A DNA stretch of 64,000 bases from Escherichia coli (GTDB lineage: Bacteria; Pseudomonadota; Gammaproteobacteria; Enterobacterales; Enterobacteriaceae), in NCBI RefSeq assembly GCF_044324875.1, contig NZ_CP172185.1, one strand, 5' to 3'. Below are positions 38,289-50,746 of the stretch, piece after piece (positions within the stretch are counted from its first letter, which is position 1; each line of letters opens with the position of its first letter). The position numbers and the translations under genes are program-made. The notes under the pieces are model-generated. The model saw nothing but the letters and a program-made list of their open reading frames with translations. It did not search any database and was not told where the DNA came from.

Positions 38289-39410
38289 TTACCCTTCGAA
38301 GAACCAATACCCGCTATTGACCAGCGCCGCGAGCATCGCGAGGAATGACGGATCTTCCAGCGCATCGCCAAAATTCTCCGCAGTCAGCGCAATGTTGCTG
38401 GCGAGTGCATCCAGTGCCGGACGGTGCGGGGAATCGATCTTCTCACCATTGGCATACACGTCGTCGCCAATGCGCAATACGCGCAGACCACCCAGACGCA
38501 CCAGCACTTCACCTTGTTTCAGCGCATCGTAGATTTCATCCGGCTGATAAGGCGGCTCTGGCGGCGCGATATCCAGTTCATGGCGTGACTGGGATATAAA
38601 CTCCCCAAACCATTGCTTAAAGTGTTCCGGCTGGTTGATCAATTCGAGCATCATCTCACGCAGTTTATCCATCTCTTGCGGCAGAACATCCGCAGGATGA
38701 GCGCGAGGTGAAACATCAGGATCGCTGTAGTAGTTGCCGCCCAGTTCACGTTGCAGCACATAATCGGCAAATCCGCTAATCAGTTCCCGCGTATTTGGTG
38801 CGCGAAAACCGACGGAATAGTTCATCGCATTTTCCAGCGCGTAGCCTTCATGGGGGAATCCTGGCGGAATATAAAGAATATCGCCTGGCTCCAGTTCTTC
38901 ATCAATGATGGCTTCGAACGGATCAACCTGTAACAGATCCGGGTGCGGGCAGTGCTGTTTCATTTGCAGCTTTTCGCCCACTCGCCAGCGACGACGTCCG
39001 GTACCCTGAATGATAAACACGTCGTACTGATCGAGATGCGGGCCGACGCCGCCGCCAGGTACAGAAAAAGAGATCATCAGATCATCAATACGCCAGTCCG
39101 GTAGTTCACGGAACGGTCGCATCAGCGCGGCGGTCGGCTCATGCCAGTGGTTCACTGCCTGCACTAACAATGACCAGTTAGTTTCACCGAGATGATCGTA
39201 GCTTTCGAACGGGCCGTGGCTGACCTGCCATTTGCCATCCTGGTGGCTGACCAGTCGACTGTCGACTTCGCTTTCCATCGCCAGACCCGCCAACTCGTCT
39301 GGAGAGATCGGGTCAATAAAATTATTAAAGCCGCGTTTTAACACCACCGGACGTTTCTGCCAGTGACGTTCAAGAAAATCGGGCCAGTTAAGAGTGAGTT
39401 GGTATTCCAT
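38289..39410 (-). CDS. roxA: Ribosomal oxygenase RoxA (YcfD), JmjC/cupin family
   Basis: 373 aa from MEYQLTLNWPDFLERHW; synteny with pepT. Confidence 0.9.
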   Translation of the reverse strand: MEYQLTLNWPDFLERHWQKRPVVLKRGFNNFIDPISPDELAGLAMESEVDSRLVSHQDGKWQVSHGPFESYDHLGETNWSLLVQAVNHWHEPTAALMRPFRELPDWRIDDLMISFSVPGGGVGPHLDQYDVFIIQGTGRRRWRVGEKLQMKQHCPHPDLLQVDPFEAIIDEELEPGDILYIPPGFPHEGYALENAMNYSVGFRAPNTRELISGFADYVLQRELGGNYYSDPDVSPRAHPADVLPQEMDKLREMMLELINQPEHFKQWFGEFISQSRHELDIAPPEPPYQPDEIYDALKQGEVLVRLGGLRVLRIGDDVYANGEKIDSPHRPALDALASNIALTAENFGDALEDPSFLAMLAALVNSGYWFFEG

Positions 39411-39611
39411 GTTAAGCATCCACAGGCTGGTATCTGCAACCGATTATAACGGATGCTTAACGTAATGCGTGAAGTATGGGCATACTTTATCAATTAGTGT
39501 TTTTTGCCGTTTCATAATGTTTCAGGTTGTGCATTATGTTTTTGATTATAAACAAATTTGTGATTTTTCTTGTTCCAGCTTGTTTCACGTTGTAGCCCTT
39601 TGTGCAACGAT

Positions 39612-39637
39612 CGGTGTAGTTAATGGTGTAGTTAATT
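39612..39637 (+). repeat. attL core: 26-bp direct repeat cggtgtagttaatggtgtagttaatt
   Basis: Identical copy at 50721-50746; itself contains an internal tandem gtgtagttaat duplication. Confidence 0.8.
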
Positions 39638-40888
39638 GTGATGACCGGATTCAAAATTATGAGCAGAGCACTTAACAAGCTGAGCGATACACAGCTAAGG
39701 AAAATCAACGGCACACCCGCCCAAAAAACAGCCTTTCTTAATGACGGTGGAAACTTGAGCGTCAGGCATTCAACCAGCGGCCTTTTAACCTGGTATTTCA
39801 CTTACAGGGCCGGAACGGGAAGGGGGGCATCACCGGAACGCATTAAGCTGGGAAATTATCCTGATCTGAGCCTGAAATCAGCCAGGGAAAAAGCCGCCCA
39901 GTGTCGCGCATGGCTGGCTGAGGGGAAAAATCCACGTCATGAGATGAATTACACCGTACAGGAAGCGTTAAAGCCTGTAACGGTTGGCGATGCGCTCACC
40001 TACTGGCTTGAGTCGTACGCAAAGGAAAACCGTGTGGATTATGACCCACTGAAAAAGCGGCTAAATAATCACGTAATACAGCACATTGGCCCTATGCCGC
40101 TGGATAAATGCGAGCTACGGCACTGGCTGGCCTGTTTTGATCGGGTGGCAAAGCAAGCCCCTGTTTCCGCCGGGTTCCTGCTACAGACATGCAAACAGGC
40201 GCTTAAGTTCTGCCGGAAGCGGCGCTATGCAATCAGCAACGTTCTTGATGATATGAGTGTGGCTGACGTTGGGAAAAAACCGGATATAGGCGAACGTGTC
40301 TTAAGTACCAAAGAACTGGGCGAATTATTGCAGGCACTGGACAAAAAAATATTTTCCCCTTACTACGTCGCACTAATCCGCCTCCTGATTGTTTTCGGAT
40401 GCCGGACAGTAGAACTGAGGTTATCGGAGATCGGCGAGTGGGATTTTACCGAAATGCTCTGGACCGTTCCGAAGGAGCACAGCAAAACGAAGGTAGCCAT
40501 ATTCCGGCCCATACCGGAAGCGATACTGCCGTTCGTCACGCAGCTGATGGAGCAGAACAGGCACACGGGCTTATTGCTGGGGGAAGTGAAACAGGAAACC
40601 AGCGTGTCGCAGTACGGCAGATTAGTGCACAGGAGGCTTAAACACCCTCACTGGTCACTGCATGACATCCGGCGCACCTTTACAACGATGCTGAACGATT
40701 TAGGCGTGGATCCTCACGTCGTGGAGCAGCTTACAGGCCACCAGATGCCAGGAATGCAGCGAGTTTATAATCATTCCCGTTATCTGGATGCGAAACGCAA
40801 TGCGCTGGATATGTGGACGGAGCGGTTAGGGATACTGGCGGGAGCACATGAAAACGTAACCACGCTACCAGTAACCAGAAGAAAATAA
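39638..40888 (+). CDS. int: Tyrosine-type site-specific integrase (P4-like family)
   Basis: C-terminal catalytic signature (…HDIRRTFTTML…GHQMPGMQRVYNHSRYLD…); true start possibly at MSRALNKLS (39659). Confidence 0.85.
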   Translation: MMTGFKIMSRALNKLSDTQLRKINGTPAQKTAFLNDGGNLSVRHSTSGLLTWYFTYRAGTGRGASPERIKLGNYPDLSLKSAREKAAQCRAWLAEGKNPRHEMNYTVQEALKPVTVGDALTYWLESYAKENRVDYDPLKKRLNNHVIQHIGPMPLDKCELRHWLACFDRVAKQAPVSAGFLLQTCKQALKFCRKRRYAISNVLDDMSVADVGKKPDIGERVLSTKELGELLQALDKKIFSPYYVALIRLLIVFGCRTVELRLSEIGEWDFTEMLWTVPKEHSKTKVAIFRPIPEAILPFVTQLMEQNRHTGLLLGEVKQETSVSQYGRLVHRRLKHPHWSLHDIRRTFTTMLNDLGVDPHVVEQLTGHQMPGMQRVYNHSRYLDAKRNALDMWTERLGILAGAHENVTTLPVTRRK

Positions 40889-41262: not shown

Positions 41263-41451
41263 GTGTTAAGCACTGATCGGTTTATACGTGAAAAAGAATG
41301 CGAAAAGCTAACAGGCCTTAGCCGCTCATGCCGCTACCGCCTGGAAAAGGCCGGACAATTCCCATCACGGCGTAAGCTGGGCGGTCGTTCCGTTGGCTGG
41401 TCTTTATCCGAAGTTCTGGCATGGAAGGAAAGCTGCGAGGCAGTTCACTAA
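41263..41451 (+). CDS. AlpA/Xis-like small DNA-binding protein
   Basis: 62 aa; ...KECEKLTGLSRSCRYRLEKAGQFPSRRKLGGRSVGWSLSEVLAWK matches AlpA-type wHTH. Confidence 0.7.
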   Translation: MLSTDRFIREKECEKLTGLSRSCRYRLEKAGQFPSRRKLGGRSVGWSLSEVLAWKESCEAVH

Positions 41452-43347: not shown

Positions 43348-43635
43348 ATGAAAAATAAAAATTCTGGCGTTAATGCCAGCGGCCCCGCTCGTCCTGAAAT
43401 CCGTCCCGGCGATATTTTCCGTGATAACTACGGCGGCACGGTAATGATTAAGGGCGTGGAAGAACGGCGCGTAACCTACCGCCGTGATGGCTACGAATAT
43501 GACTGCGTTATGCCTGTTTATCAGTTCCGGCGTGATTTCACGCTGGTGGGCCATCGTAAAGCCGTTAATCAGAAACGTGCTGCAAGTTATATCCGCAAAA
43601 TCCGTGAAATGCTGGTCGCAGGGGGTAAGAAATGA
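43348..43635 (+). CDS. Hypothetical basic protein (95 aa)
   Basis: Overlaps helicase gene start (ATGA); unknown family. Confidence 0.45.
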   Translation: MKNKNSGVNASGPARPEIRPGDIFRDNYGGTVMIKGVEERRVTYRRDGYEYDCVMPVYQFRRDFTLVGHRKAVNQKRAASYIRKIREMLVAGGKK

Positions 43636-45038
43636 AACTTGCACCGAACGTAAAACTGTTACCGAAAGATAAACACACTGAGGCGGTTATTTTTGCGGGT
43701 GATAATGCTCACTCCTTTGCAGAACATTACATGATTGCACAGGCCAAAAAAGCAGGCGATCCCATCCCTCCGGTTTACCTGGGCCGTTATCAGTTAAGCG
43801 AACTGGACAACTTACAGATTGTTGATGAAGGACGATACAGGGCAAAGGTCATACGCGCCGGAAACCTGGACGATATGCAGATGCTGACCATTGCCACAAA
43901 ACTGGCGATCGCCGGAGTCCAGGAGGCGCGCCTACTTTCTGAAAATTTCGAACTGCTGGAGGACTGGAGCGACCAGCTACCACGACTACGGGAAACATGG
44001 GAGAGAGGGGAAAGCCTGGTCATGAATGGCGGAAAGCGAAAAATCACACTTCCCATCTCATGGGGTTCTGAGGGATTCGATGCGCAGCAAAGCTACGTCA
44101 TTAAGGGGCTTATTCCGGCTGAGTCATTATGCAGCACCTACGGGGCCAGCGGTTCTTATAAATCGTTCCTCGCCATTTCCTGGTCGTGCCATGTTGCCAC
44201 AGGTATGGCATGGGGAGGCCGCAGGGTAAGTAAGGGTGCGGTTATCTATATCGCTGGCGAAGGCAGCATGGGCGTAAAACGCCGCGTTAAGGCGTGGGAG
44301 ATAACCCACGACAAGGTGGTTACAGATTTGTGCATCATTAACGCGCCTGTTTTCCCTGCATCGCCTGACTATGTGGAGCAGGTTATCAGGACTGCCGGAC
44401 TTGTTAAGAGCAGAACGGGCGAAAATGTGCGGCTGATTGTGATCGACACGCTGGCCCGTTGCTTTGGTGGGAATGATGAAAATGATTCCCGTGATATGGG
44501 CGCATTTATCCAGGGGTGTGACGCGATAAAGCAGGCCACAGGGGCCACGGTGCTGGTGGTTCACCATTCCGGCAAGGATGAAACAAAGGGGGCGCGTGGT
44601 TCCAGTGCATTCCGTGCCGCGCTTGATGCAGAGTACCGAATCAGCCGCGAAAATTCAGACGTTACAGCACTGGTCGCAGCATGTACGAAGATGAAGGACG
44701 CAGAGGAGCCAAAAGAGAGCGCATACGACCTTAAAAGCGTGGAGGTGTTCACCGATACAGATGGCGAAGAAATTGTGTCCATGGTGGTGATTGACGTTCC
44801 CCGCGCCCCTGCTGAACTGGAGCGCATCGAGGAGGCAGGCAACAAGACGGAAAACCATACCGCGCTATGGGGGTGCATCCGTTCACGCACACAGAACGGC
44901 GACAAGTGCACGATCCCGCTGTTACGTGATGACATGAAACGGCTTGGGTATGACGTGAAAAATATGCGGCGATGGTTAGCCAAACTGGAAAAAGACGCCG
45001 TGATTTACATTGATGGTGATGATGTAGGACCACTGTAA
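43632..45038 (+). CDS. Replication protein, RecA-fold P-loop ATPase/helicase (RepA/DnaB-like, satellite pri-rep position)
   Basis: 468 aa; P-loop-like YGASGSYKS, Walker-B-like LIVIDTL, followed immediately by iteron cluster. Confidence 0.7.
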   Translation: MKLAPNVKLLPKDKHTEAVIFAGDNAHSFAEHYMIAQAKKAGDPIPPVYLGRYQLSELDNLQIVDEGRYRAKVIRAGNLDDMQMLTIATKLAIAGVQEARLLSENFELLEDWSDQLPRLRETWERGESLVMNGGKRKITLPISWGSEGFDAQQSYVIKGLIPAESLCSTYGASGSYKSFLAISWSCHVATGMAWGGRRVSKGAVIYIAGEGSMGVKRRVKAWEITHDKVVTDLCIINAPVFPASPDYVEQVIRTAGLVKSRTGENVRLIVIDTLARCFGGNDENDSRDMGAFIQGCDAIKQATGATVLVVHHSGKDETKGARGSSAFRAALDAEYRISRENSDVTALVAACTKMKDAEEPKESAYDLKSVEVFTDTDGEEIVSMVVIDVPRAPAELERIEEAGNKTENHTALWGCIRSRTQNGDKCTIPLLRDDMKRLGYDVKNMRRWLAKLEKDAVIYIDGDDVGPL

Positions 45039-45238
45039 AAAGTGAGTAGTAAAAGTGAGTAATGGTGAGGTTTTTACAAAATATTAACACAATTACTCAC
45101 TTTCTCACCTGTATACATGCTCAAAAGTGAGCAGTGAAAAAACACTTATGAAACATGCACATATAAAACACAAAAATCTCAAGTGAGACGAAGTGAGACG
45201 CTTTAAAAAGTGAGTAGTAAAAGTGAGAGATGGTGAGC
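45037..45238 (+). repeat. Iteron cluster, putative island replication origin
   Basis: Multiple aaaagtgag / ggtgag repeats in both orientations around an AT-rich spacer (tttttacaaaatattaacacaatta), directly downstream of helicase gene. Confidence 0.65.
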
Positions 45239-45239
45239 A

Positions 45240-45608
45240 ATGAATAAAAACCGAACAGCAGGACAAAATACCGAAGGTAAATTTATGAACACTGAAATTG
45301 AAACACTGAGCATATCAACTGCCCTTCCTGGCTGGTGGGCTAAGTTCAAAGACGACGACGGCACGGAATGGTATAGCCCAATTGCTGCATGGGCGCTTTG
45401 TGATATCCACCATTTCGGCACCGGAGATACTTACCGCGAAATCTTACCCGTGCTGACCAGTGAGCTGGGCATGAGTCCGCATAGTCCTGATGAGGGAATG
45501 TGCGAGTGCCTTTATCTGCCGGATAAGAAGTTTGTTCACTGTGGTGAATCGATGGTATTTGCCTGGTATCCGGTTAACGACAGCAGCAATAGCGGTACTC
45601 TGGAGTAA
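45240..45608 (+). CDS. Hypothetical protein (122 aa; alternative start at 45285)
   Basis: ORF after ori; unknown family. Confidence 0.45.
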   Translation: MNKNRTAGQNTEGKFMNTEIETLSISTALPGWWAKFKDDDGTEWYSPIAAWALCDIHHFGTGDTYREILPVLTSELGMSPHSPDEGMCECLYLPDKKFVHCGESMVFAWYPVNDSSNSGTLE

Positions 45609-45611
45609 ATC

Positions 45612-45854
45612 ATGAAGGTAAACCACAAAAAGACAGATCACCGCGCCATTGACCTTACAGAGCACTGGCTGAGGGTGGCGATAAAAATCATCGACCGCAA
45701 CACGGGGGAAGGATACGCGAAAGCACATCCCGAACTGATAAGTGCATTCATGACCACAGCGGCGGCAAACTTTGCCACGCTGACAGAGCGGGATATTGCC
45801 GAAGCAGAACAGGTAACAACCATCAACGTTAAAACCAGTGAGGTGGAATCATGA
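45612..45854 (+). CDS. Hypothetical protein (80 aa)
   Basis: ORF overlapping ssb start; unknown family. Confidence 0.45.
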   Translation: MKVNHKKTDHRAIDLTEHWLRVAIKIIDRNTGEGYAKAHPELISAFMTTAAANFATLTERDIAEAEQVTTINVKTSEVES

Positions 45855-46261
45855 CAGCACAGATAGCGGCTTACGGGCGGCTGGTGGACGACCCGCAGGT
45901 AAAACAGACCAGTAAGGGTACACCGATGACGCTGGCGCGTATGGCGGTATCTTTACCATGCGGCCAGGCACAGGACGGACAGGCGACGTTATGGTTATCG
46001 GTCATCGCATTTGGCAAACAGGCCGACTTTCTGGCTAAACATCAAAAAGGCGACGTTGCCAGCGTATCCGGCACGATGCAGGTCAGCCAGTGGACCGGAC
46101 AGAACGGGGAAACGCGGCAGGGTTATCAGGTTATTGCAGACAGCGTAATCAGTGCCCGTGCGGCACGTCCTGGCGGGAACAGACGCAAAACCACAGGCAC
46201 ACAGGGTAATCAGCCACCAGCGGGAGGCGATGACCCTTACGGTGATGATATTCCGTTCTGA
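45851..46261 (+). CDS. Single-stranded DNA-binding protein (short SSB)
   Basis: 136 aa OB-fold-like with Gly/Pro-rich tail ending in acidic DDIPF, as in E. coli SSB. Confidence 0.7.
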   Translation: MTAQIAAYGRLVDDPQVKQTSKGTPMTLARMAVSLPCGQAQDGQATLWLSVIAFGKQADFLAKHQKGDVASVSGTMQVSQWTGQNGETRQGYQVIADSVISARAARPGGNRRKTTGTQGNQPPAGGDDPYGDDIPF

Positions 46262-46271
46262 GGGGGTGACG

Positions 46272-46544
46272 ATGGTACATGACCGCATAGCGGAGGAACT
46301 CGAGGCAAAAGGATTTTACCGGAGGGCGGCGGCGCGATGGGGTGAAGTTATGAGGCTGGTGAGCACTGACAAGGAGCGCGAACAGGTGGCAATGCGACGG
46401 CTGGAATGTTCCCTGAAGGCACAGAGGCCACCGGAGCCGCCGGATGATTTAGGCGCTCTGAAAAGGTCAGTTAATCGCACTGAAAAACAAATGGGGATAG
46501 CTGGTATTGGCAAAGCAATATGGCGCAACTACCCGCAGAAGTGA
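46272..46544 (+). CDS. PerC-family transcriptional regulator homologue
   Basis: 90 aa from MVHDRIAEELEAKGFYRRAAARW (RBS aggggg); resembles PerC/Pch family N-terminus as remembered. Confidence 0.55.
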   Translation: MVHDRIAEELEAKGFYRRAAARWGEVMRLVSTDKEREQVAMRRLECSLKAQRPPEPPDDLGALKRSVNRTEKQMGIAGIGKAIWRNYPQK

Positions 46545-46551
46545 GCACACA

Positions 46552-46573
46552 GCCGGAGCAATCCGGCTTTTTT
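46552..46573 (+). terminator. Rho-independent terminator after perC-like gene
   Basis: gccgga-gcaa-tccggc followed by tttttt. Confidence 0.7.
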
Positions 46574-46585
46574 ACGCCTAAAAAA

Positions 46586-46622
46586 AGCCCGATAAGGTCA
46601 AAGGGGGCTTATCGGGCTTTTG
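46586..46622. terminator. Second hairpin, possibly bidirectional terminator
   Basis: 11-bp stem agcccgataag / cttatcgggct flanked by A-run and T-run. Confidence 0.5.
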
Positions 46623-46784
46623 TAGAGGAGGTTTTTTATGGTGCACTGGCACACATGATCGGGATAATCATTTCATAATTTGCAACATAACTCAATATTG
46701 TTGCGCAAAATGCAATCATGATTATAATCAGGACTGGATGAACATCCAGTTATGATTTTTTAAGTCAAAGAGGAATTTCTGACT

Positions 46785-46991
46785 ATGGCAGAAGAGAAAA
46801 AAGGCGGGGTGACGGTCTACATAAGCCCCGACATCGTGGAGGCGCTCAAGGAACGCCACCAGCAGAATGTAAAAGCAGGCATTGCGGCAGGACTTGATCC
46901 GCTGGCGATGGTTGAGCCGTCAACAGGCTGGCAGGTGCGTACCTATTTACGTGCGGCGCTGGGTATCAATCAGGTTCACGGAGGTGAATAA
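46785..46991 (+). CDS. Small hypothetical protein preceding capsid gene
   Basis: 68 aa; stop overlaps capsid gene ATG. Confidence 0.45.
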   Translation: MAEEKKGGVTVYISPDIVEALKERHQQNVKAGIAAGLDPLAMVEPSTGWQVRTYLRAALGINQVHGGE

Positions 46992-48046
46992 TGACAGGCA
47001 AAGCAAAGGCACTTACAACTAACCAGCTTTTCGCGTACCTGAATCGCGGGGATATTTCGGAATATAAATTTAGTCCGCTGTTTACCACGCTGTTTTTCCC
47101 GAACGTGGCGACCTTCAACACCCAAAACATCATGCTGGACACCCTGGACATTGAAGAGGTTACGATGTCAGCGTTCTGTTCTCCTATGGTGGGTAGTCAG
47201 GTCCAGCGCGATAAAGGGTACGAAACCAGCACGATTAAACCAGGCTACATGAAGCCAAAGCACGAAATCGATCCAACAAAGACCATCATGCGCATGGATG
47301 GAGAAGATCCGGCACAGCTTAACGATCCAACTTACCGCCGTATGCGCCTGATTACTGGCAACATGCGCCGCCAGATAAACGCCATTAAGGCGCGCGTGGA
47401 ATGGCTGGCGGTGAATGCGGTAACGACCGGAAAAAACATCATTGAGGGCGAAGGCATAGAACGCTATGAAATCGACTGGAAAATACCGGAAAACTGCATC
47501 ATACAGCAGGCCAGTGGTAAAAAATGGTCCCAGCAGGATAAAGACATGCACGACCCAATCTATGACATCGAGCTTTATGCTGATCAGGCAGGTTGCCCCG
47601 CCAACGTCATGATTATGGGCGGTGAGGTATGGCGCACATTACGCAGCTTTAAAAAATTCCGTGAACTGTACGATCTTTCCCGTGGATCAGAATCCGCCGC
47701 CGAGCTGGCCTGTAAAAACCTGGGCGAAGTGGTGAGCTTTAAAGGCTATCTTGGTGATCTGGCCCTTATCGTCTATTCCGGCAAATACACTGACAGCGAC
47801 GGGACCGAAAAATATTTCCTTGAGCCTGATTTGCTGGTCCTGGGTAACACCAACAATAAAGGGCTGGTGGCATATGGTGCGATTATGGATCAGGAAGCGG
47901 TAAGAACGGGCGCAACGCAAAACATGTACTACCCGAAAAACTGGATTGAGGACGGCGATCCGGCGATTGAGTACGTGCAGACGCACAGCGCACCGCAGCC
48001 TGTACCGGCAGATATTCGCAAATTTGTTACCGTCAAAATTGCTTAA
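46991..48046 (+). CDS. Lambda gpE-family major capsid protein homologue
   Basis: 351 aa; collinear similarity to lambda E (KFSPLFTTLFF / KFDPLFLRLFF; PGYMKPKHEI / PGYVKPKHEV; DPTYRRMRLI / DPAYRRRRII; YYPKNWIEDGDPAIEY / RYPKNWVTTGDPAREF). Confidence 0.8.
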   Translation: MTGKAKALTTNQLFAYLNRGDISEYKFSPLFTTLFFPNVATFNTQNIMLDTLDIEEVTMSAFCSPMVGSQVQRDKGYETSTIKPGYMKPKHEIDPTKTIMRMDGEDPAQLNDPTYRRMRLITGNMRRQINAIKARVEWLAVNAVTTGKNIIEGEGIERYEIDWKIPENCIIQQASGKKWSQQDKDMHDPIYDIELYADQAGCPANVMIMGGEVWRTLRSFKKFRELYDLSRGSESAAELACKNLGEVVSFKGYLGDLALIVYSGKYTDSDGTEKYFLEPDLLVLGNTNNKGLVAYGAIMDQEAVRTGATQNMYYPKNWIEDGDPAIEYVQTHSAPQPVPADIRKFVTVKIA

Positions 48047-48057
48047 CGGGGGATTCT

Positions 48058-48393
48058 ATGGACGCTCCATACATTGAGTTATTTTCAGGCAGCCAACAGG
48101 TATCCACGACGCTGGTACATTTTGCCGCTGATGCTGGCGTTATTCAGGAATTTACCCCGCTGATGCTGGCAGACAATGGCGAGTTTAAGCCGTGGGATGG
48201 TAAGGAATCTGGCAAGGCTGTTTATCTGACCTCGTACCCTGTGGACACGTCAAAGCAGAAATCAGCACAGTGTTACAAGACGGGGATATTCAATATTGCC
48301 GCCGTTAACTGGCCTGACAGCGTCGACACCGATGCGAAAAAATGCGCCGCCTTTGCGGGTTCCGGCGTATCCGTTCAGCCGCTGGCCCGATAA
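48058..48393 (+). CDS. Lambda gpD-like head decoration protein homologue
   Basis: 111 aa; C-terminal GIFNIAAVNWPDSVDTDAKKCAAFAGSGVSV parallels lambda D [32 protein letters not shown]. Confidence 0.7.
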   Translation: MDAPYIELFSGSQQVSTTLVHFAADAGVIQEFTPLMLADNGEFKPWDGKESGKAVYLTSYPVDTSKQKSAQCYKTGIFNIAAVNWPDSVDTDAKKCAAFAGSGVSVQPLAR

Positions 48394-48467
48394 GCAGGGG
48401 GAACGATGGCACAAACCAGGGCGATGACGGCGACATCTATCGCATACTGAAAACCATCTGAGACAAG

Positions 48468-48490
48468 GCCGGAGAAATCCGGCTTTTTTT
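48468..48490 (+). terminator. Rho-independent terminator after decoration gene
   Basis: gccgga-gaaa-tccggc followed by ttttttt; near-duplicate of terminator at 46552. Confidence 0.7.
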
Positions 48491-48492
48491 GC

Positions 48493-48620
48493 GGGTCCTT
48501 TCCGGCATGTGGACCCGTTACGGGGCGTCGACCTCGCACGTTTTCGCTATTTATGAAAATTTTCCGGGAAAAAGCATGTCAGTTCTTCTTGTTATTAACA
48601 TATTGTTTTTAAAGAAATAA
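48493..48620 (+). promoter_or_regulatory. Lambda-type cos site (cosQ/cosN/cosB-like) upstream of terS
   Basis: gttacggggcgtcgacctcgcacgttttcgctatttatgaaaattttccgg closely matches remembered lambda cos (gttacggggcggcgacctcgcgggttttcgctatttatgaaaattttccgg); putative cosN gggcgtcgacct at 48523-48534. Confidence 0.75.
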
Positions 48621-48710
48621 CTATCAAGAAAGAAACGACATCATAATGATGAAAAATCTGTTTTTTTTGGCATTTCATGTCGTAACTGATTTTTGATAAG
48701 GAATTGCTGA

Positions 48711-49295
48711 ATGAATGTTAATAAAAAGAGGCTTGCCGAAATTTTTAACGTGGACCCGCGGACGATTGAACGCTGGCAGTCACAGGGGCTTCCTTGCGTC
48801 TCCAAAGGCAGTAAGGGCATTGAATCTGTATTTGATACTGCCATGGCAATTCAGTGGTATGCGCGGAGGGAAACTGATATCGAAAACGAAAAGCTCCGCA
48901 AAGAACTGGACGATTTGCGTGCGGCAGCGGAGTCAGATTTACAACCCGGCACCATTGACTATGAACGCTATCGGCTCACAAAAGCGCAGGCAGATGCGCA
49001 GGAACTTAAAAACGAGCGCGATCGCGGTGACGTGATTGATACAGAGTTTTGCATGTACGCGCTTTCAAAACTGGCGAGTCAGATTTCATCAATCATGGAC
49101 AGCCTCCCGCTTACTATGCAAAGGAGCTTCCCACAGATGACCCCCGCCATGCTGGATGGCCTGAAAAAAGAAGTTGTCAGAGCCTGTAACGCATGCACAA
49201 AACTTGATGAAAACATCCCGCGAATGCTGTCCGATTATCTGATGGAAACTACCGGAAATGTGCCTGATAAGTTTCAGCCGGATAAAGACAAGTAA
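48711..49295 (+). CDS. Terminase small subunit, lambda Nu1-like
   Basis: 194 aa; [28 protein letters not shown]...[29 protein letters not shown] parallels lambda Nu1 (MEVNKKQLADIFGASIRTIQNWQEQGMP...[29 protein letters not shown]). Confidence 0.85.
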
Positions 49296-49536: not shown

Positions 49537-49935
49537 TTGATGTGGTGGTGTCCCATGAAAATTCAAAAATCAGCCGTTTTCCGCGATGCTCCCGCCCCGT
49601 GGCAGGGCACCCCACAAGGAGGACCCGCCATCACTATGGAGGACATGACCATGACCGAGACCGAAGCGCTCGGGATAATCCGCAGTATTACCGGAATCAG
49701 CCAGCAGGCTGGCGAACAGGAGGCCACGCAGCCGGACAGCGTGATCGCCGAAAATTACGTGCGTGTTGTTGCTGATGTAATGCGCCGTGATGGTATTGAG
49801 CTTAACGGCGTGGATATGCGCGACATACGAATCAGAGTACTAGAGTTGCTGGCATACCGTCGACGCGTGGCGATGTATCAGGAGAGCGCGAAAAACACTT
49901 ATCAGTGGAAGAAGCCGGAGCGGTTACGGCGGTAA
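49537..49935 (+). CDS. Hypothetical protein downstream of terS (likely shorter, start near 49651)
   Basis: ORF of 132 aa; RBS ggagg favours ATG around 49651 giving about 95 aa; unknown family. Confidence 0.4.
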   Translation: MMWWCPMKIQKSAVFRDAPAPWQGTPQGGPAITMEDMTMTETEALGIIRSITGISQQAGEQEATQPDSVIAENYVRVVADVMRRDGIELNGVDMRDIRIRVLELLAYRRRVAMYQESAKNTYQWKKPERLRR

Positions 49936-50290
49936 CTGGTTGATATTTTCGAAATTCGCCAGCGGCGAACATCGGGGAAACCAGCCTAACCAGTTGATTC
50001 TTTCGGAAACAGCCATTGGCGGAATCCGGCGCGGTAACTTGCTGATATTCCCGATAACGCAAAATTGCGCTGGCTACATCCCTCACATCTGAGGACTGAT
50101 AATGCGACATTGCGCTGGCTGGCAAAGTGCAAAATTGCACGATGGCCTAACCCATTGATTATTTCGAAAACCTGCAATGCAGGAAATCGGGGAAGTAAGC
50201 CTAAGCTATTGATTCTTTCGGAAACCTCAATTTGAGGAAGTCGGCGCGGTAACTCGCTGAACTTAAAGCAAACCTCAAAATTGAGCTGGC
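49932..50290 (+). repeat. Array of four degenerate repeats of a ttgattctttcggaaac-like motif with associated short palindromes
   Basis: Motif variants ggttgatattttcgaaat (49938-), cagttgattctttcggaaac (49991-), cattgattatttcgaaaac (50154-), ctattgattctttcggaaac (50205-); cggcgcggtaact at 50028 and 50242. Confidence 0.6.
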
Positions 50291-50720
50291 TGAATAATCA
50301 TTATGATTACGCAGATGATTAAGGAATGACCGAAGGCGGAAATTCGCCTGTGGTTGATGGGGGAGTTGCAGATCTGCAACTCGACCATGAAACTACGGAA
50401 ACTACCCGTAGTTTGGGTAGTAAGAGTAACACCCAGATTTTGGGACTTACTCGTGATACCCAAATTTGGAGTATCGGTGGCAACCATAACGACTTTCGTT
50501 ACGGTTGATGCTTTTACCCCATTGGGGGAAAGGTATTACGATAATCATAACACCTACCGAACAGGTAAAGCCCACCAGCCTGATTGACATTTAACCGGAA
50601 AAAAAGCCAGGTAGCCCCGTTATGTGGATCCCCATATCGACAGCAACGCCCCCTTAAAATTACCCGCCTTTATATTTCTTGTGCCTATTTGTTCCACGTT
50701 GTTTCATACAGTGCGCCGAA

Positions 50721-50746
50721 CGGTGTAGTTAATGGTGTAGTTAATT
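50721..50746 (+). repeat. attR core: second copy of 26-bp direct repeat
   Basis: cggtgtagttaatggtgtagttaatt identical to 39612-39637. Confidence 0.8.

Follow-up and report, generated by a model that had tools for sequence, protein, structure and literature searches.

PerC and the group 1 Pch proteins (PchA/B/C) activate LEE1, Pch through relief of H-NS/StpA/Hha/YdgT silencing (PMC4764244). PchD and PchE have little effect on LEE (PMC6265319). Over-expression of PchE lowers csgD/csgA, biofilm formation and HEp-2 adhesion and strongly raises fliC/flhDC and motility, phenotypes known mostly from a single O157 strain with the gene over-expressed from a plasmid (PMC6265319, PMC7369912). Regulatory activity in vivo has been shown for PerC-family relatives (PMC6265319, PMC7369912, PMC11773190, PMC4764244), and published work has already stated that E. 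coli PICIs carry PerC variants. The PICI protein EcCIMP1_025 silences LEE1 in Citrobacter rodentium, and a tie between the PerC and ANR families has been hinted at (PMC11773190). A statement in that paper, citing Porter 2005, reports no effect of the PerC-like genes of EcCIEDL933 and EcCICFT073 on LEE1-lacZ fusions (PMC11773190).

The roxA-phoQ interval is the site of O157:H7 O-island 51 (CP-933C/Sp7) and of CP073-3 in CFT073 (PMC3378721), currently named PICI EcCIEDL933 and EcCICFT073, respectively. Helper-phage induction and high-frequency transfer have been shown for EcCICFT073 (PMC6092414) and EcCIEDL933 (10.1101/2022.09.08.507074) only. O-island 51 was described with an ssDNA-binding protein plus PchE (PMC3378721), and in the Sakai RefSeq annotation of Sp7, ECs_1587 (ssb) is directly followed by ECs_1588, "transcriptional regulator PchE." The literature and RefSeq already contain PICI-borne PerC/Pch homologues of E. 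coli and, in O-island 51, PchE beside ssb. RACE in O157 mapped one transcript, ECs1586-ssb-pchE, starting 10 nt upstream of ECs1586 (PMC7369912, PMC6265319). Expression of pchE in O157 is steady and low and falls on SOS induction (PMC6265319, PMC7369912).

The island and its surroundings

The whole 64,000-nt stretch of DNA analyzed here is referred to as the window. It carries an att-flanked island of ~11.1 kb between roxA/ycfD (38289-39419, - strand) and phoQ (50827-52287, - strand). The left direct repeat (39563..39637) is 75 nt in length; the right repeat (50672..50746), also 75 nt, is an imperfect copy with 79% identity and an exact 3′ core. The three left-arm genes named next are encoded on the + strand. 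A tyrosine integrase gene (39638..40888) has NCBIfam integrase-domain matches, all under curated cut-offs, and its equivalent in the closest relatives is annotated "tyrosine-type recombinase/integrase." An AlpA-like HTH excisionase/regulator gene (41263..41451; phrog_2790, "excisionase and transcriptional regulator," E=1.3e-17) is separated by several small ORFs from a DUF4222/RgdR-like gene (43348..43635; phrog_285, E=1.5e-28). The latter is the positional homologue of ECs_1581, which is RgdR (PMC3378721), and genes at this position in relatives are annotated DUF4222.

The replication initiator is a RepA-type helicase (AAA_25) encoded at 43632..45038 (+; Pfam, E=8.5e-43) and annotated "helicase RepA family protein" in relatives. 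Immediately 3′ of it is an ori-like region (45033..45237) in which two 37-nt iteron blocks of the AAAGTGAG type (45033-45069 and 45201-45237, 92% identical) lie around AT-rich DNA. In PICIs the origin directly follows the gene for the replication initiator (PMC6092414), and this region would be the expected PICI replication origin. Three + strand genes lie between the iterons and perC: orf122 (45240..45608, 122 aa; phrog_27268, E=1e-11), which is not present in Sakai Sp7; the ECs1586-like orf80 (45612..45854, 80 aa; phrog_1231, E=1.5e-45); and the satellite ssb (45851..46261, 136 aa; Pfam SSB PF00436, E=9e-17), immediately 5′ of perC.

Two terminator-like hairpins lie downstream of perC. A scan found an intrinsic-terminator-like hairpin with a T-run directly 3′ of the gene (46551..46573, +). 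The hairpin (46547-46573) has an 89% identical copy at 48463-48489, after the decoration gene, and is conserved with Sakai Sp7, where the two copies follow pchE and ECs_1589. A second hairpin, aagcccgataag / cttatcgggctt with a T-rich tail (46586..46622, +), was read from the sequence and was not reported by the scan. The morphogenesis/packaging module (46785..49295, +) starts with orf68 (46785..46991) and encodes a lambda-E-type capsid protein (46991..48046; Pfam Phage_cap_E, 2e-49), a D-type decoration protein (48058..48393; Pfam HDPD, 1e-17) and a Nu1-type small terminase (48711..49295; Pfam Phage_Nu1, 1e-71). No tail or lysis genes were found in the island. By its architecture, which agrees with RefSeq-annotated relatives and with PICI descriptions in PMC6092414, the island is a Gram-negative PICI of the EcCICFT073/O-island-51 type. 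The first-pass annotation had described a gene next to ssb on a mobilizable satellite; ssb is immediately upstream, and the island that carries both genes is att-flanked and of PICI type.

Several features were observed in the right arm. In the TUM1886 and O157 FRIK2455 islands, a ~414-bp "head-tail connector" gene lies between the decoration gene and terS, where the window has a 318-bp gap only. The 5′ half of the window terS (48711-48983) has no DNA match to these relatives. The right arm of the window is therefore a different or rearranged module. At the right end of the island are a 113-nt imperfect direct repeat (49933-50045 / 50148-50260, 74%) and three 23-nt repeats (at 50053, 50098 and 50269); these repeats (49933-50291) may lie in a cos/packaging or att-proximal region. 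A 132-aa ORF 3′ of terS (49537-49935) matches phrog_1561 (E=4e-49, unknown function) and may be the packaging-redirection gene (Rpp) of EcCICFT073-type islands.

The chromosomal backbone was compared with 5,426 complete E. coli genomes. The phoQ-phoP-purB-hflD-mnmA segment (51000-57000) reaches no more than 99.0% identity with any of them, and the exact island occurs in 0/5,426, with a best coverage of 85%. The host is E. coli-like, of a lineage without a representative among the complete genomes. The gdhA/ynj region (1-24000) is joined to potA-pepT-roxA, an order that we take to differ from that of E. coli K-12. Within the join are a YadA-anchor adhesin ORF (24596-26197), a sigma70-r4-type regulator (26259-26714), an IS3-family transposase (27112-28002) and an IS66 element (30019-32352), which suggests an IS-associated rearrangement or island.

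The perC gene and its homologues

The perC/pchE-type gene (46272..46544, +) is an intact ATG-to-TGA ORF of 90 aa plus stop. A Shine-Dalgarno-like GAGGGGG (46260..46266, +; sequence reading) lies 5-11 nt before the ATG and overlaps the ssb stop codon (46259-46261), which is 10 nt ahead of that ATG. A GTG-started ORF (46152-46544, 130 aa) that overlaps ssb was rejected as the true gene because the Pfam match, all homologues and the ribosome-binding site point to the ATG at 46272.

A PerC-family homologue had been called at exactly these coordinates in the first-pass annotation, and the call stands. Pfam PF06069 (PerC) aligns with residues 1-89 over positions 1-89 of its 90-position profile; at E=4e-38 and 130 bits, against a gathering score of 22.6, the match is not due to chance. 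The protein also falls in phrog_994 (E=7e-41), and several "transcriptional activator" phrogs match its N-terminal ~50 residues. No NCBIfam model matches it, so the sources of the family call are Pfam and PHROGs. The ANR (AraC negative regulator) family has no Pfam match to the protein at E<=1. The conserved PerC-family core, A-x2-L-E-x2-G-x2-R-R-A-x2-R-W with Cys46 and Gly75, is complete; 15/15 family-invariant columns of one alignment (A1) are retained, and the nearly invariant columns of a more diverse alignment (A2) are also present. Its 90 aa lie within the family range of ~85-105 aa. By homology, perC is confirmed as an intact, real gene for a small regulator of the PerC/Pch family.

Comparison with the PerC/Pch family, the check proposed at first pass, found similarity throughout. 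The window protein is 74% identical to Sakai PchE (ECs_1588), 73% to the FRIK2455 allele (76% over 87 aa pairwise), 46% to EcCIMP1_025, 42% to PchA, 39% to PerC from the per-type locus of an IncF plasmid (EPEC-type) and 37% to PchD. The closest characterized homologue is therefore PchE, not PchA/B/C, PchD or PerC. With 39-42% identity to PerC and PchA, clustering with PchE and carriage on an 11-kb PICI, the protein stands apart from group 1 and PerC. By both sequence and position it is an orthologue of PchE and belongs to the PchE (group 3) clade. For comparison, pchA is found in the lambda-like prophage Sp4, and EPEC-type perC is on an IncF plasmid, where the ORFs ahead of it are presumably perA and perB fragments.

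The predicted fold is all-alpha and TPR-like, with a confident AF2 model, and has no recognizable DNA-binding motif. A PDB sequence search found no solved relative (top match E=0.4). Against two O157 PchE alleles, dN/dS is 0.41-0.53 overall, 0.19-0.27 over codons 1-45 and 0.63-0.85 in the C-terminal half. On these ratios purifying selection acts on the N-terminal half; evolution is fast in the C-terminal half, and the targets of the window allele could differ from those of PchE. All 80 IMG/VR loci with a close homologue (80/80) have an intact ATG-started ORF; 74 of the ORFs are 90 aa, some relatives are shortened to 81-82 aa, and 37 distinct proteins are represented. These comparisons show an intact gene that is selectively maintained.

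The window allele is 100% identical at the DNA level to a TUM1886 gene annotated in RefSeq as "PerC family transcriptional regulator," whose island is in tqsA. DNA-level homologues occur in 1,018/5,426 complete E. coli genomes. Among the IMG/VR loci, the window allele is a minor variant, with 94-98% identity to perC in 4/80. The mid-section VSTDKEREQVA is also found in another PICI PerC clade. In tblastn searches, the PerC family was found on 140 plasmids and in 2/50,697 phage records. On a metagenomic contig, a 51% identical homologue (L015, 2651-2941) lies directly 3′ of a PapC-type fimbrial usher gene, which links the family to fimbrial operons outside satellites as well.

Genomic context was counted with single-protein scans, as alignment A2 varied too much to yield a usable degenerate pattern. 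These scans reach close relatives only, so the counts describe the PchE clade and its ssb type and not the whole PerC family. Of the 76 IMG/VR loci with enough flank, 72 have an SSB homologue whose end lies just 5′ of perC. By replication protein, the ssb-perC loci comprise 37 RepA-type, 4 DUF927-type and 25 matching neither query; by head module, 42 are of lambda-E type and 30 of HK97 type. The same ssb-perC order is found with a 62% identical homologue in cf-PICI-like islands, and a 36% identical homologue lies within a DUF4222-primase-ProQ-SSB-PerC array. Conversely, satellites with the window-type SSB have a PerC-HMM match just downstream in 69/78 cases and none in 9/78 (L112, L117, L136 and L162-L167). 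In eight of these nine, a spacer of ~240-410 nt separates ssb from orf68 and the capsid gene. In L117, the remaining one, the ORF after ssb resembles window ORF 49537-49935, and the sequence ends before any capsid gene. From these nine satellites, perC is common but dispensable for island architecture. The intergenic DNA 3′ of perC travels with the packaging (head) module, not with perC. New here are the ssb-perC adjacency, the nine similar satellites without perC and the predicted TPR-like fold without a DNA-binding motif.

The promoter mapped in O157 is not conserved in the window, and a promoter scan of the + strand from 45000 to 47100 gave no sigma-70-like site. Co-transcription of perC with ssb in this island is therefore an inference from the O157 transcript.

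Proposed role of PerC

We propose that perC is a PchE-type (group 3) PerC/Pch gene. It would close a short orf-ssb-perC transcription unit with which the replication module of this EcCICFT073/O-island-51-type PICI ends. Judging from relatives, the resident island would express it constitutively, at a low level and on one transcript with ssb, and its product would act in trans on host promoters, most likely at loci under H-NS silencing (csgD/curli, flhDC and adhesin genes, for example). PerC, small, all-alpha and TPR-like, would serve as an adaptor in the remodeling of nucleoprotein complexes that contain H-NS and not as a classical DNA-binding activator; the H-NS mechanism has been demonstrated for group 1 Pch only, 42% identical to the window protein (PMC4764244). 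The gene would be accessory (moron-like) and not needed by the satellite, given that 9/78 satellites with the same ssb do without it. This account as a whole, an accessory PchE-type regulator with H-NS-related action in trans on host loci and with ler/LEE1 activation unlikely, is in our judgment probable, with real room for doubt. The proposal in the first-pass annotation that island carriage is coupled to host regulation is plausible, and for PchE such regulation had already been published (PMC6265319, PMC7369912).

That annotation further expected activation of ler and virulence regulons in the manner of PerC and PchABC, by which the satellite would deliver a positive regulator of type III secretion. 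The protein has its Pfam family and a conserved N-terminal motif in common with PerC and PchA, some PICI-encoded PerC homologues activate LEE according to Fillol-Salom et al. (PMC6092414), and pchE over-expression raised ler transcript >2-fold in one study (PMC7369912). However, the protein is 39-42% identical to PerC/PchA as against 74% to PchE, and PchD and PchE had little LEE effect (PMC6265319). The EcCIMP1 homologue silences LEE1, and the PerC-like genes of EcCIEDL933 and EcCICFT073 are without LEE1-lacZ effect in the relevant statement of the same paper (PMC11773190). No sign of LEE in the host was found within the 64,000-nt window. The expectation is not supported: the protein belongs with the PchE clade, its nearest tested homologues either fail to activate LEE1 or repress it, and activation of ler/LEE1 by the window perC is unlikely. 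An activator like EPEC PerC or EHEC PchA/B/C, delivered by the satellite, is a reading to which we give very little credence. Also hardly credible is an inactive remnant annotated by homology only and without regulatory activity. The fast C-terminal half (dN/dS 0.63-0.85) and relatives of only 81-82 aa would fit a remnant, but the ORF is unbroken and has a good ribosome-binding site, all 80 of 80 relatives keep an intact copy, the N-terminal half has dN/dS of 0.19-0.27 with all family-invariant residues kept, the AF2 model is confident, and PchE and EcCIMP1_025 have clear phenotypes (PMC6265319, PMC11773190).

Alternatively, perC could serve the satellite life cycle and not regulate the host, either as a counter-silencer/adaptor that switches on the island's own capsid/packaging operon or as a partner of SSB, the replisome or the helper phage. 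Its constant place at the junction of the replication and packaging modules is consistent with this, as are SSB upstream in 72/76 loci whatever the replication protein or head type, the 36% identical homologue in the same SSB-PerC order, co-transcription of pchE with ssb in O157 (PMC7369912), a predicted fold typical of protein-protein interaction and the near absence of the family from sequenced phages (2/50,697 records). That ssb and perC stay paired even where identity has fallen to 36% hints at a function for the satellite itself. Against it, perC is cleanly missing from nine natural satellites that share the ssb and capsid operon, the DNA 3′ of perC moves with the packaging module and not with perC, pchE expression drops on SOS induction instead of rising (PMC6265319), the family also occurs on plasmids and beside fimbrial genes, and the EcCIEDL933 paper makes no mention of the gene in its PMC version (10.1101/2022.09.08.507074). 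We regard a life-cycle factor as unlikely but worth keeping in view. A related and rather doubtful suggestion drops the "virulence moron" label and counts perC among the semi-core genes of the replication module in enterobacterial PICIs. Its product, a TPR-like adaptor made together with SSB, would lift H-NS silencing from the AT-rich late operon of the satellite or interact with the helper phage or host replisome, and any influence on LEE, curli and flagella would be a side-effect of this activity. Retention of the pair across replication and head module swaps, to 36% identity, is compatible with this suggestion; the nine natural satellites without perC make the gene at most conditionally useful.

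For the accessory PchE-type regulator that we favor, the practical value is a correction: members of the PchE clade should not be read as ler/LEE activators. If the window PerC regulates host genes at all, curli/biofilm, adhesins and motility are the expected targets. The satellites without perC would make useful natural controls for its function. The findings raise the questions of why satellites so consistently keep perC in the ssb transcription unit and what the fast C-terminal half recognizes.

Comparison with described loci

EPEC PerC (BfpW) and EHEC PchA/B/C are small all-alpha PF06069 proteins like the window protein, and A7, L10, E11, G14, R17, R18, A19, R22, W23, C46 and G75 form a core common to PerC, PchA/B/C and the window protein. 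Their genes belong to the per locus of the EAF plasmid or to lambdoid prophages, whereas the window gene is on a satellite after ssb. EcCIMP1_025 of E. coli MP1 is likewise a PICI-borne PerC-family protein (PICI EcCIMP1), but its gene is near the far end of its own island and not after ssb.

EcCICFT073 (CP073-3) of UPEC CFT073 has the same insertion site as O-island 51 (PMC3378721) and, like islands of the window type, carries capsid (c1499) and decoration (c1500) genes (PMC6092414). A PerC-like gene with no effect on LEE1 is attributed to it in a statement of PMC11773190, and the comparison with this island is by description only. The island of O157 FRIK2455 is at the same site and resembles that of the window in having a lambda-E/D/Nu1 right arm and an ssb-PerC pair.

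Sakai Sp7 has the same roxA-phoQ site and the same gene order as the window, ECs1586-like orf, ssb, perC and terminator. Window positions 45657-46573 (orf80-ssb-perC-terminator) match the Sakai ECs1586-ssb-pchE block at 89% DNA identity. The two islands differ in replication protein (RepA-type helicase in the window, DUF927-type primase in Sakai) and in head genes (lambda E/D/Nu1 module in the window, full HK97 module in Sakai), and the extra ORF in the window (45240-45608) replaces the mapped O157 promoter region. The C-terminal half of the window protein diverges from that of Sakai PchE, whereas the family, the 90-aa length and residues 1-27 are the same in both proteins.
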